This document shows, in pieces, positions 30,001-33,000 of a DNA stretch of 35,292 bases (its first letter is position 1; each line of letters opens with the position of its first letter). This DNA is from Halodesulfurarchaeum sp. GTDB taxonomy: Archaea > Halobacteriota > Halobacteria > Halobacteriales > Halobacteriaceae. The stretch is taken from the NCBI GenBank assembly GCA_042216015.1, contig JBDGUI010000004.1, forward strand, positions 1-35,292, given 5' to 3'. The position numbers are program-made.

Positions 30001-33000
30001 CCTGGCTCCCGTAGCCGAGGACGGCGACGGTCTTCGTTTCGATCTGGGAGCTGTCCGCGTCGTCGTCGTAGTATACCGGTCTGGTGAATTCGTCGTCTGT
30101 CATGTTGTCGATTGCGTGCCGCTGGCGAGTGCGGCGGTGCCCGTGCGGGCGACCTCGTGTACGCCGAACTGTTCGAACGCCTCGATCGCAGCGTCGATCT
30201 CTGCCTCCGTGCCCGTCAACTGCACCGTGAGGATACCGTCATCGCCCTGGATCGCCTCTCCGTCGTACATCTCCGCGAGTGCGGAGACCCCGGCGGGATC
30301 GTCGCCGTGGACCTTGATGAGCGCGAGTTCGCGCTCGATTGCGCCCCTGACCTCCCGGACCGACCAGGCGTGAACCTCCTTTCTGAGCTGCCGTTTGGCC
30401 TGTTCGATGCCCGGCTCGTCCTCCTCGACCACGATGGTCATGCGGGCCTTGGACTCGTCGATGGTCGGGCCGACGGTCAAACTCTCGATGTTGAGCTGCC
30501 GCCGGGCGAAGAGCCCGGAGACGTTGGCCAGGACGCCGGGTTCGTGATCGACGAGTGCCGAGATCACGGCCCGACGCTCCTCGAGTTCGGCCTCCGTCTC
30601 CGGGTCGATGCGAATGCCCTGGGAATTCCGGCGGCCGGTGGGCATCTCCCGCTCCTCCGGAGCCGCCCCCTCCATTCGTTCCCCGGTCATAGGTGATCGG
30701 CCCCCAGGGCGAACTGCGCGTTGTTCCCACCGCTTGGCACCATCGGGTAGACGTCCGCCACGGGATCGACGTGGAAGTCGATCACCGAGGGGCCATCGTA
30801 CGCCAGGGCCTCGTCGATCGCGTCCGGCACCTCGTCGTAGCCCATCGCCCGCAGGCCCTGGGCCCCGTAGGCCTCCGCCAGGGTGGCGAAGTCGGGCCCC
30901 CAGTCCCACTTGCTCTCGTAGCGCCGCTCGTCGTAGAAGGCGTCCTGCCACTGCCGGATCATCCCGACGTAGCTGTTGTTCAGAATGGCGACGGTGATGT
31001 CCAGTTCCTCTCGCACCGCCGGTGCGATGGCCTGACTGGTCATCAGGAAGGAGCCATCGCCCTCGAAGGCGATGACCTGCTTCTCGGGGGCGGCCAGCTT
31101 GGCGCCCACTGCGGCCGGGGCGCCATAGCCCATGGTCCCCAGTCCGTTCGAGGAGACCCACGTTCGCGGCTCGGTGTAGGTCCAGTACTGGGCGGCCCAC
31201 ATCTGGTGCTGACCGACGCCGGTGGTGACGATCGCGTCGTCGGCCGCGGCCTCGTTCATCGCCTCGACCACGAACTGCGGCTTGAGGGGCTGGTCCTGTG
31301 GCGTCTCATAGCCCATCGGGTACTCGCTCTTCCACTCCTGGGTGCGGTCGTGCCAGGCCGCCGCCGGCGGTTTGCCCGGCATGGCCTCGTGCAACTGCGT
31401 CAGGACGGCCCCGGCGTCCCCGACGAGCGGATAATCGGCGTGGATGTTCTTCGAGATCTCGGCGGGATCGATGTCGACGTGGATGACCTCGGCCTCGGGC
31501 GCGAAGGTCTCGATACCCCCGGTCAAGCGGTCGTCGAAGCGGGTTCCCACCCCCAGAAGCACGTCACAGTGGCTCAAGGCCATGTTGGCATAGCCCGTGC
31601 CGTGCATGCCACCCATCTCCATTGCGAGTTCGTGGTCCTCGGGGAACGATCCCAGCCCGGGCATGGTCGTGACGACCGGGATGTCGTACTCCATCGCGAA
31701 CGCCCGGAGTTCCTCGCTCGCCTCGCCCTTGATCACGCCCCCGCCGGAGAGGATCAGTGGCCGGTTGGCGTTCGCGAGTGCCGCTGCGGCCTCGGCCACT
31801 GTCTCGGGATCGGCTTCCGGATCCGGCACCTGATAGGACGCGGGCGTCGTCGGTTCGGACGGCTCGACGTCGGTTTCCCCCTGTGTCACGTTCTTGGGCA
31901 GGTCGACGAGTGTCGGGCCCTGTCGCCCCTCCCTGGCCAGCGCCATGGCGGTCCCGACGTCGTCGCCGACCGAGTCCGGGTCGGTCGCGAAGATGTTGGC
32001 CTTGGTGATGGGGGCGGTGATCCCCATCGTGTTCGTCTCCTGAAAGGCGTCGTTGCCGACCATGTCCTGGGCGACCTGCCCGGTGAGGGAGACGACCGGG
32101 TCCGAATCCAGGTTGGCGTCGGCGATGCCCGTGACGAGGTTCGTCGCGCCCGGGCCGGAGGTGGTGATCGTGACGCCGGGGTCGCCGGAGACGATACCGA
32201 AGGCGTCGGCCGCGTGGGAGGCGCCCTGTTCGTGGGCCATCGAGACGTGGTGGATGTCCGAGTCGGCGAGGGCGTCGTAGACGGGCATGATCGCCCCGCC
32301 CTGAACGCCGAAGGTGATCTCGACGTCGGCCTTCTCGAGAGCAGCGACGACCGAGCGCGCTCCCGTGGTCTGTTCGTCCGATTCTTCGGTCTCCTCGTTC
32401 GAGGTCAGGTCCTGGGACGCTGTCGGCGGGTCCGTCTCTTCGGGTGTTGGCTGGGGTTTGCTCATTGATTTCCGTGGGCGTGGTCGGTCAGTTTCGAATC
32501 GATGCCGTCCGTCCCGTTCGGCTGGCGTCCGTGAGTGACGGTTCCGGTCCGCCGAAGGAGACGATCGAGAGAAGGTGTTACTGGGGGCCCGGGGCCCCTA
32601 CGATCGCACCGCTGGCCACACACGCCCGCGGACTGAATCGCCTGCACACGTGGGCCATTGTATCCCCATAGTGGGATACGATCCGATTTATGCGTTCCGG
32701 TCGTTGCGGACCTGGGTCCCGCGTTTGTCGCCGGGATCGTCGGCCCGTCCCGACGGTGGCTCATGTCACGACCCCCATCGAGCTGGAGTCCAGTCATGCA
32801 TCGACCTCCCGTCGAAACGAAGACCTGACTCATGCCCTGGCCTCCGTGGATTGGGAGGCTCGGTCGACCCCAACGGCCGCCGCAAATCGGTGGAGATCCT
32901 CGACCGTGATGGTGTGCTTCTCCGCAGCCCGGTTTTTGACCCGCTCGGTGATCTCTCGTACCTCCTCGTCGGTCGGGGCGTAGCCCGCCTCCTCGAGGTG

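Follow-up and report, generated by a model that had tools for sequence, protein, structure and literature searches.

A leaderless upstream ORF with Ile and Val codons, crossed by a bridge ORF, precedes ilvB in Halobacteria: a candidate ribosome-mediated attenuator

Ribosome-mediated attenuation is textbook bacterial control. The ilvB locus of Halodesulfurarchaeum sp. raises the question of whether archaeal ribosomes are used in a comparable way. The window analyzed here is a stretch of 35,292 nucleotides (contig JBDGUI010000004.1, positions 1 to 35,292; genome G000). The survey's finding had proposed that a leaderless upstream ORF (uORF1) in front of ilvBN senses Ile and Val by ribosome stalling. 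Our literature searches found no report of ribosome-mediated attenuation in archaea. The combination of uORF1 with the bridge ORF described below is known in part from bacteria, and no archaeal description of it was found.

uORF1 was present in the sequence with the 26 codons that the survey had described, and its start lies 33 nt downstream of the ATAAAT box (Table 1). It is located between a short leuA-family gene on its 5' side and ilvB-ilvN-ilvC-leuC-leuD-leuB on its 3' side. To examine its conservation, 90 ilvB upstream regions were collected as best matches from a 121-genome search; since these genomes are kin, the counts overstate independence. GTAGGGG closed an ATG-led ORF in 81 of the 90 regions, and the leader was found in 14 families of the search. 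Five further regions (L049, L076, L080, L081, and L085) had a variant leader. The remaining four (L087 to L090), where ilvB lies directly 3' of a long leuA, had none. When the TATA box was chosen blind to ORF position in the 81 motif-bearing leaders, an ATG was found 28 to 39 nt past it (mode 32) in 80. This ATG was in frame with GTA, with no stop between, in 79 of 80 leaders, even though the TATA-GTA distance ranged from 77 to more than 150 nt. The upstream ORF is thus under the selection for translation that characterizes a classical attenuator, and a leaderless short ORF opens the transcript, as in the mycobacterial type. A second set of 80 named records, partially overlapping the first, had the motif in 79 of 79 usable cases, 76 of them in frame. 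Across leaders, uORF1 was 15 to 52 codons long, a wider range than the 19 to 32 residues given by the survey. These comparisons support uORF1 as a translated-looking leaderless ORF with cognate minor codons.

Table 1. Features of the leuA-ilvB region in the window
Feature	Position	Strand	Description or basis
Leaderless uORF1 (leader peptide)	32578..32658	(-)	26 codons; MAHV...GAIVGAPGPQ; sequence and conservation
BRE and TATA box, internal promoter	32686..32698 (ATAAAT = 32691-32686)	(-)	Sequence, conserved spacing, H. volcanii TSS
Sensor codons ATC (Ile) GTA (Val)	32599..32604	(-)	Codon counts over leaders
5' hairpin H1 inside uORF1	32613..32657	(-)	Predicted folding
Hairpin H2 (GGGG/CCCC) over uORF1 end	32584..32598	(-)	Local folds
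C/U-rich, G-poor tract	32554..32577	(-)	Base composition over 149 leaders
Conserved GNAYCG element	32545..32550	(-)	149 leaders vs control windows
+1 frame part of leuA, a short member of the 2-isopropylmalate synthase family	32830..34010	(-)	Family assignment; orthologue HVO_1510 of H. volcanii
TATA-linked frame-0 start ORF of leuA	33986..34060	(-)	24 codons; frame differs from that of leuA by one base
GTT CTT C, candidate site of the +1 shift at a Leu codon	34009..34015	(-)	79/79 named loci
ilvB, acetolactate synthase large subunit	30687..32465	(-)	TIGR00118 above cut-off
ilvN, ilvC, leuC, leuD, leuB	26091..30690	(-)	Neighbors overlap by 4 or 8 nt
Bridge ORF	32462..32833	(-)	123 codons, -1 frame to uORF1; no Pfam match
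SD-like GGAGG within leuA end	32841..32845	(-)	7 nt before bridge ATG

At this locus, uORF1 ends in ATC-GTA-GGG over the GGGG/CCCC hairpin H2. GTA was the search anchor, so that its presence in 149 of 149 distinct leaders is by design; the codon preceding it was Ile in 144 of them (ATT in 112, ATC in 32). GTA was retained in three of the five variant leaders and lost in the other two. In our own gene set for this genome, ATT accounts for 11% of Ile codons, in agreement with the survey, and GTA for 3.7% of Val codons, not the 2% reported there. The GTA-GGG hairpin module was also found before valS in nine loci, and the codon preceding GTA was never Ile there, which ties the Ile codon at ilvB to the pathway. 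The control codons thus match the pathway product, Ile followed by Val at ilvB and no Ile at valS.

The matching Val, Phe, and Lys leaders that had been claimed before valS, pheS, and dapA were recovered as well, in 21 of 26, 19 of 26, and at least 16 of 30 loci, respectively, with G000 included each time. The dapA value is a floor, as TATA picking failed at many dapA loci. ilvD had no such leader in 22 loci, and ileS had one in 22, with ATT-ATT. A genome-wide uORF scan recovered valS, dapA, and leuA and missed ilvB and pheS, and it is not a census.

The survey had also reported a conserved hairpin over the uORF stop, and this was borne out: the GGGG of H2 was paired in 148 of 149 local folds, the next pair being C-G in 111, U-G in 13, and U-A in 8. 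For the predicted hairpin H1, own pairing was better than cross-species pairing in 103 of 141 leaders (mean z of -1.3). The survey had left room for GTA also being kept by the hairpin. The 3' partner of GTA matched in strict register in 57 of 149 leaders, local folds had all of GTA paired in 81 of 149, and the other type of valS leader, found in 12 loci, ends in GTA-GTA without a GGGG hairpin. Therefore, the conservation of GTA is not owed to pairing alone.

With a G after it, GTA also yields TAG in the +1 frame, which may be a further reason for keeping this codon. Joining uORF1 to ilvB through a +1 shift was considered and rejected: the TAG at GTA-G closes that frame, which was open in only 42 of 78 spacers.

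Downstream of H2, the region +20 to +40 from GTA contained 47% C, 26% T, and 9% G over the 149 leaders. GNAYCG was seen in 116 of 149 leaders; in control windows it was seen in 18 of 146 and 19 of 149. In most relatives it was followed by pyrimidines. No mutually exclusive antiterminator was conserved among the leaders examined, and no consensus fold of the spacer was obtained. A long-range helix from uORF1 to +36..+76 was rejected, own pairing being no better than cross-species pairing (56/146) or shuffles (75/146); pairing with +76..+116 was weaker, and the whole-leader folding energy of the window had a z of -0.27. No covariance model of RF03001 or of any other Rfam family matched in the window, and RF03001 had no match in G000 either. 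No hairpin of the intrinsic-terminator type stood immediately ahead of a U run: H2 lies about 40 nt upstream of the mapped RNA end described below, and the tract is C-rich. With no conserved antiterminator and a hairpin so far from the 3' end, the survey's wording that Halobacteria act as bacteria do is not supported in its strict sense. A footprint of 27 nt, 12 nt of them 5' of the P site, is given in a passage of PMC7261190. By computed masking, a ribosome parked at GTA would cover -15 to +11 and free the CCCC arm (unpaired, 0.10 to 0.83). The pairing of the 3'-end region was unchanged by such masking (0.50 to 0.52). As there is also no antiterminator, structure does not explain the link between the hairpin and the 3' end.

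Transcript data for this leader were thought to be lacking; however, the Haloferax volcanii tables hold both a start and an end for HVO_1509, whose identity as the uORF1 counterpart is inferred from its position. If that identity is correct, the ORF that the survey described as uncalled is annotated in H. volcanii. A leaderless TSS was recorded for HVO_1509 at 1377265 with a TATA box at -28 and a modest coverage of 30.9. An RNA 3' end was observed in TEX-treated RNA at 1377114, 47 nt past the HVO_1509 stop. The leader RNA is thus 152 nt long, with a premature end. Placed by distance only, this end would fall about 15 nt after the start of GNAYCG. A comparable 3' end was found in H. volcanii 38 nt past a translated uORF preceding cimA. 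The mapped end could alternatively be a processing site, a pause site, or the result of translational shut-off. HVO_1509 is listed as undetected by Ribo-seq or MS, which counts against the stalling reading, and the supplement of PMC7261190 had no match for the locus.

The survey was right about uORF1 and incomplete about its surroundings, as it missed a bridge ORF that crosses the leader and an apparent frame shift in leuA. In 79 of 79 named loci, the leuA coding sequence lay in the +1 frame of its TATA-linked ATG, and an in-frame ATG was absent in all 79. Upstream of the shift site, the frame-0 part is acidic and the +1 part basic. Translation of leuA apparently requires that ribosomes shift by +1 at a Leu codon; in H. 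volcanii, its orthologue HVO_1510 is identified as LeuA in PMC8305020.

The ATG of the bridge overlaps the leuA stop and its TGA overlaps the ilvB ATG (ATGA), so that it spans the internal promoter, uORF1, and the spacer. Its start was present in 76 of 78 loci, with an SD-like word upstream in 65 of 75 bridges. The bridge frame was open in 72 of 78 loci against 5.7 expected from shuffles, and stops between leuA and ilvB numbered 142, 186, and 12 in frames 0, +1, and -1 over 77 loci. The leuA stop was found in all three frames (48/8/21); the adjoining first ATG was in the bridge frame in 70 of 70 cases. Bridges that ended early stopped at or near a start opening a second ORF, which ended on ilvB. 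As a background, 7 of 132 long gaps in G000 had such an ORF, most of them recognizable small genes. A start beside the upstream stop, an SD within the upstream gene, and a stop over the downstream start are the layout of a translationally coupled delivery ORF, and the bridge shows this layout. The bridge would thus be a sequence-free ORF that hands ribosomes from leuA to ilvB. In two extra ilvB copies without leuA (L049 and L076), the uORF and hairpin were kept and the open -1 frame was lost. Against this role, the bridge was disrupted in one AT-rich lineage and doubtful in a few others (L081, L083, L299, and L036), and no evidence of leuA-to-ilvB read-through RNA was seen. A genuine bridge protein was considered and rejected (17% Arg, 8% Asp plus Glu, 72 to 182 residues, no Pfam match).

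The reading that we favor, with slightly better than even confidence, is an Ile/Val stalling attenuator without an antiterminator that is overridden by Leu-starved ribosomes via the bridge. The internal promoter would give a leaderless RNA, on which the first ribosome translates uORF1. If Ile- and Val-tRNA are charged, this ribosome would reach the stop and depart, H2 would form, the C/U tract would be left bare, and the RNA would be terminated about 45 to 50 nt past the uORF1 stop, probably through FttA/aCPSF1 or else at a pyrimidine terminator of low strength. Under a shortage of Ile or Val, the ribosome would park on ATY or GTA, cover the 5' arm of H2, and remain beside the polymerase, so that transcription would continue into ilvBN-ilvC-leuCDB. 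On RNA from the leuA promoter, LeuA would be made only after a +1 slip at the Leu codon; ribosomes would then resume on the bridge where leuA ends, read through the entire attenuator, and begin again at the ilvB ATGA. A shortage of Leu may thus also open the operon through the +1 slip and the bridge. Sections of PMC11616081 and PMC8116511 describe FttA as requiring 36 nt of nascent RNA and propose that it excludes a coupled ribosome; they give its optimum as U at -1 and a U-rich stretch 9 to 14 nt before the cut. The H. volcanii end, placed by distance only, showed no clear fit to this optimum.

The same Ile/Val sensor might instead work as a translational switch, in which the parked ribosome unmasks a downstream start (an internal ATG or the ilvB SD) and the 3' end reflects polarity on untranslated RNA, as in the mycobacterial Cys leaderless short ORFs. 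This we hold to be unlikely, although it has the most to recommend it among the alternatives. In 51 of 77 loci, an ATG that shares the bridge frame lies 70 to 110 nt past GTA (the other two frames have 5 and 6); it serves as the hand-over start where the bridge ends early, and persists where the bridge is lost (L049, L081, and L083); moreover, an SD-like word precedes ilvB in 48 of 77. However, the uORF1-spacer pairing is not conserved (own above cross-species in 56/146) and has no consensus fold, the internal ATG is missing in the window and in 26 of 77 loci, and the mapped 3' end precedes it. Less probable still is that starved ribosomes on uORF1 slip into the -1 frame, that of the bridge, and so arrive at ilvB without an intermediate, much as leuA and cimA have +1 slips. 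In 74 of 78 spacers, the -1 frame had no stop between GTA and the ilvB start, it stays open past GTA even in the lineage whose bridge is broken upstream, the A-GGG-G run would permit re-pairing of Gly-tRNA, and leuA and cimA have frame-change layouts. Yet the Ile-tRNA in the P site would have no -1 match while GTA stands unoccupied in the A site, and the leuA bridge explains the open frame, which the two copies lacking leuA have lost. The valS loci that carry this module showed no fixed phase (0/+1/+2 = 2/5/2), a weak test as their spacers are stop-poor in all frames.

A nascent peptide whose end (I-V-G-A/V) arrests the ribosome with the free amino acid, of the TnaC or AAP type, or which acts in trans, appears very improbable. 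The last four residues are conserved at the protein level, and Ile, Leu, and Val made up 40% of codons -7 to -2 against 12% elsewhere; however, the synonymous choice is fixed (GTA, ATT-rich), upstream residues are free to vary, the length ranges from 15 to 52 codons, and there is no Pfam match. Finally, we give next to no credence to the inverted repeat being a DNA operator for a transcription factor, with the ORFs incidental. The GTAGGGG...CCCCTAC dyad found in about one third of leaders would suit an operator, but the H2 arm spacing varies from 1 to 9 nt, the promoter distance changes by multiples of three, and 79 of 80 leaders have the ATG in frame.

Extended beyond this locus, stalling on Ile/Val, Val, Lys, or Phe codons and +1 shifts for Leu and Ile might form a haloarchaeal control of amino acid genes by ribosomes on leaderless mini-ORFs, with FttA as Rho and an OR gate of two sensors acting via the bridge on an unbroken chain of overlapping genes; we consider this broader scheme tentative, at somewhat under even chances. 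Coupling of archaeal ribosomes to FttA termination is still treated as a hypothesis in the sections of PMC11616081 and PMC8116511 cited above. The 152-nt H. volcanii leader, with a mapped start and end and two mutable codons, makes both attenuation and FttA coupling directly testable. The bridge, if true, would clearly exemplify in nature an ORF whose sole reason for being kept is to carry ribosomes, here so as to merge two amino acid signals. The reading would also give a role to HVO_1509, sRNA HVO_1101s, and the Rfam motif RF03001.

In E. coli, ivbL and ilvL are leader-peptide transcription attenuators of ilv operons. The ilvBNC operon of Corynebacterium has a three-hairpin attenuator, according to a portion of PMC11857589. 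The archaeal locus resembles the bacterial ilv attenuators in its short ORF, branched-chain codons near the end, hairpin over that end, and premature RNA end before ilvB. Unlike them, uORF1 is leaderless and has only one fixed Ile and one fixed Val codon, no antiterminator was found here, the hairpin, which no U run follows, lies about 40 nt from the 3' end, and a second ORF crosses the leader. E. coli tnaC undergoes Rho-dependent attenuation, stalling on free Trp at its stop codon and inducing a catabolic operon. Likewise, a ribosome parked next to the tract that is rich in C and poor in G would bar a termination factor from it, with FttA/aCPSF1 as the putative Rho analogue (sections of PMC11616081 and PMC8116511). 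In contrast to the free Trp and catabolic operon of tnaC, a hungry codon is proposed here. The polycysteine leaderless sORF attenuators of mycobacteria, a "ribulon" in which the stalled ribosome frees the following gene's ribosome-binding site (excerpt of bioRxiv 10.1101/834739), share the leaderless sORF in first position, the cognate codons, and the many loci each with its own sensor. They differ, as far as the excerpt goes, in that a 3' end is mapped in the H. volcanii leader and no duplex of that kind was found here over the stretch examined, +36..+116.

For leuA, a part of PMC8305020 describes a start-codon problem at HVO_1510 (leuA2), with an out-of-frame ATG at the TSS, and speculates on slippage and Leu dependence. 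The TATA-linked ATG of leuA is similarly out of frame here. Beyond that part, which names no shift site and has nothing on HVO_1509 or the bridge, and whose supplement lacks HVO_1509, a candidate shift site is named here. The leuA-Halobacteria RNA (RF03001) likewise precedes a branched-chain gene in this clade as a conserved cis element, and it is contained in a leaderless uORF whose end is close to an Ile codon; unlike uORF1, it belongs to another locus (long leuA/cimA) and another sequence. Lastly, a section of the review PMC12548453 describes uORFs that solely deliver ribosomes by termination-reinitiation, with coupling shown in H. volcanii. Like these, the bridge starts at an upstream stop, ends on an NTGA overlap, and has an unconserved product; unlike those in that section, it is 72 to 182 codons long, overlaps a promoter, a uORF, and an attenuator, and joins two separately sensing genes.

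The Ile/Val-ending leader ORF reported before ilvB in the survey's finding is present: uORF1, a leaderless ORF, starts 33 nt behind an ATAAAT box, with a short leuA-family gene on one side and ilvB, ilvN, ilvC, leuC, leuD and leuB on the other. No Rfam family matched the window. An ilvB search over 121 genomes gave 90 upstream regions for examination. GTAGGGG closed an ATG-led ORF in 81 of them, five had variant leaders, and four, where ilvB lies directly behind a long leuA, had no leader; five further regions of that type, also free of the leaderless uORF, were found in an additional set. 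When the TATA box was picked blind to the ORF, an ATG lay 28 to 39 nt downstream in 80/81 regions, open and in frame with GTA in 79/80. In a second set, 80 named records that in part repeat the first, the motif occurred in 79/79 usable ones, with the ATG in frame in 76. This frame lock is the strongest sign in the sequences that uORF1 is translated. In the lineage without the leader (L088, L089 and L301), a small ORF ending RY[SC]FEME was seen between long leuA and ilvB, overlapping both in some genomes.

Coordinates of the leader and shift features (the first four in the window)
Feature	Position	Strand	Remarks
uORF1	32658-32578	-	26 codons; ends ATC GTA GGG GCC plus four further codons
Bridge ORF	32833-32462	-	-1 frame
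Frame-0 start ORF of leuA	33986-34060	-	sole TATA-linked ATG (34060), one base out of frame with leuA
Candidate +1 shift site GTT CTT C	34009-34015	-	invariant, 79/79 named loci
ilvB-type GTA-GGG hairpin module before valS	~120-215 nt upstream of valS (L257-L260, L262-L266)		one clade, without Ile codon

The codon preceding GTA was Ile in 144 of 149 distinct leaders (ATT in 112); in the genome under study, 11% of Ile codons are ATT and 3.7% of Val codons are GTA. GTA served as the search anchor, so that its count in leaders was fixed by design; it was kept in 3/5 variant leaders, and two extra ilvB copies had ATT-ATT alone. GTA is not fully accounted for by the hairpin: it was fully paired in 81/149 local folds and matched its hairpin partner in strict register in 57/149 leaders. 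The best control for the sensor codons was valS, where the codon preceding GTA in the nine module-bearing loci was never Ile, and where 12 other loci had a very short uORF ending GTA-GTA, without a GGGG hairpin. Phe-run leaders preceded pheS in 19/26 loci and Lys leaders dapA in at least 16/30, the genome under study among both. The generalisation to cognate leaders at valS, pheS and dapA holds, but not all genomes carry the full set. No leader was found at ilvD (22 loci). At ileS there was one in 22 loci, ending in ATT-ATT (ATT ATT GCG GGG, with a hairpin) about 358 nt upstream of the ileS match at L312; the 21 others had none. An AGC-GGY-GCG (Ser-Gly-Ala) word, which may reflect the 5' hairpin, was frequent about 7 to 9 codons ahead of the sensor codons in dapA (L214, L218, L220) and ilvB uORFs.

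The survey's finding had no expression data for this leader, but the available tables for Haloferax volcanii give both a start and an end. We take HVO_1509 as the uORF1 counterpart because of its position between HVO_1508 (ilvB1; PMC4300041) and HVO_1510 (leuA2; PMC8305020). It is listed as a leaderless 33-aa ORF with a transcription start at 1377265 and a TATA box at -28, HVO_1508 having no entry in the portion seen (PMC4983044). An RNA 3' end is at 1377114, 47 nt past the HVO_1509 stop, with a 3'UTR value, which we read as RNA-seq coverage, of 4318, against 139 to 1007 in the other listed rows seen (PMC7237163). The accessible tables of PMC10117724 record no detection of HVO_1509 by either Ribo-seq or MS, which counts against uORF1 translation; HVO_0644A, the uORF preceding cimA, is listed there as translated, and has its own RNA 3' end 38 nt past its stop (PMC7237163). 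In the H. volcanii tables, the sRNA HVO_1101s begins about 200 nt upstream of dapA, which fits a Lys leader, and the 212-nt leader of HVO_2948 fits a Phe leader. HVO_2945 (870 aa), which we presume to be valS, has a 6-nt UTR and therefore no leader.

The GGGG/CCCC hairpin over the uORF1 end (H2) formed in 148/149 local folds, the next pair being C-G, U-G or U-A. A C/U tract lies 3' of H2, followed by a GNAYCG element in 116/149 leaders versus about 13% of control windows; stop+47 is a median of 15 nt past the GNAYCG start. H2 is thus no terminator stem of the bacterial kind. The 5' hairpin within the uORF (H1) was supported, its own pairing beating cross-species pairing in 103/141. No antiterminator was found: a long-range helix failed its pairing test, the leader alignment gave no consensus fold, and masking a 27-nt ribosome footprint (the size given in the available part of PMC7261190) freed the CCCC arm and left the 3'-end region unchanged.

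The ilvB frame was +1 relative to GTA in 69/81 loci, a constancy that a plain attenuator would not require. This bias arises from an ORF in the -1 frame, the bridge ORF, which runs from the leuA stop to the ilvB ATGA across the attenuator; it is new here and absent from the survey's finding. Starting upstream of the TATA box, the -1 frame stayed open in 80/81 loci, and the bridge started within -1 to +23 nt of the leuA stop in 76/78 (76/79 in named records). It ended at an ilvB ATGA or ATGnnTGA or handed over to a second short ORF ending there. Between leuA and ilvB there were 142 stops in frame 0, 186 in +1 and 12 in -1, and the bridge frame was open end to end in 72/78 loci versus 5.7 in shuffles. 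The leuA stop lay in any frame, but the adjacent ATG was in the bridge frame in 70/70; 65/75 bridges had an SD-like word. The product is 72 to 182 aa long, Arg-rich and unconserved. Counting the bridge, all neighbouring genes in the window from leuA through leuB share overlaps of 4 or 8 nt, and termination-reinitiation at such overlaps has been shown in H. volcanii, with delivery-only uORFs proposed, according to the part consulted of a review (PMC12548453). The two extra ilvB copies, which lack leuA, kept uORF and hairpin and lost the open -1 frame; the bridge was also broken in one AT-rich lineage. In the genome under study, 7/132 long same-strand gaps were bridged so, most of the other six resembling, by eye, ordinary small genes. 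The bridge is very probably translated. At 32760-32845 (-) it has three in-frame ATGs, each within an ATGA preceded by a G-rich stretch; they resemble short tandem duplications derived from the end of leuA. Relatives (e.g., L005, L008 and L021) have an internal bridge-frame ATG 70 to 110 nt after GTA (51/77; absent in the window), opening a short ORF. This ORF often includes Tyr-Arg, encoded by a GTATCG word; valS and dapA spacers contain the word too, but in other frames.

The TATA-linked ATG of leuA was one base out of frame in 79/79 named loci, none of which had an in-frame ATG. Ahead of GTT CTT C, the frame-0 reading is acidic and the +1 reading basic. The out-of-frame ATG with this invariant site marks a candidate Leu-sensing +1 shift; slippage under Leu lack was already speculated for leuA2 (PMC8305020, in part). 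In the paralogue cimA, loss of which causes Ile auxotrophy (PMC4300041, in part), the Rfam RNA RF03001 (leuA-Halobacteria) sits within a leaderless uORF offset from the cimA frame by one base and contains GAA ATT C, both in 28/28 (L101-L130). GAA ATT C is probably a site of Ile-sensing +1 shifting; if so, RF03001 would gain a function. In two genomes (L117 and L122, ~1500-1750), RF03001 and its uORF precede a non-cimA gene, and cimA there has a different, TTT ATT leader (L097, L099). The part seen of a 2021 review names a single archaeal programmed shift, a -1 (PMC8211752).

The data establish the anatomy, its conservation, the frames, and one mapped start and end. We consider it very probable that uORF1 senses Ile/Val-tRNA in some form. 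When transcription begins at the internal promoter, a ribosome completing uORF1 would leave bare C/U-rich RNA, and transcription would end near +60; a ribosome parked at ATY or GTA would prevent this. The stretch of nascent RNA bound by the archaeal termination factor FttA (aCPSF1) is 36 nt long, and exclusion of FttA by a coupled ribosome has been proposed (PMC11616081 and PMC8116511, available parts); in geometry only, this agrees with a polymerase near +60 when the ribosome edge lies at +12. When transcription begins at the leuA promoter, ribosomes short of Leu would shift, complete LeuA, cross the attenuator via the bridge and restart at ilvB. As the two routes combine, the operon would answer to Leu, Ile or Val.

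We lean towards this whole picture, an Ile/Val stalling attenuator with a Leu-driven bridge route. A translational switch in place of termination appears unlikely. A -1 shift out of uORF1 into the bridge is more doubtful still. Arrest by the peptide itself is very improbable, and a DNA operator scarcely credible.

The idea of archaeal attenuation is reportedly touched on in older studies of a Methanothermobacter Trp minigene and of alternative folds upstream of trp genes in Haloferax. No report of an archaeal amino-acid attenuator was found in literature searches, with subscription papers mostly outside their coverage, or in the accessible parts of PMC10117724, PMC7261190 and PMC11456600; the first goes no further than likening sORFs in 5'UTRs to leader peptides. 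The claim that Halobacteria do this as bacteria do is partly supported: the ilvB leader would operate as leader-peptide control does in bacteria, but does not pass two of the tests that define a classical attenuator, as H2 is no bacterial-type terminator stem and no antiterminator was found.
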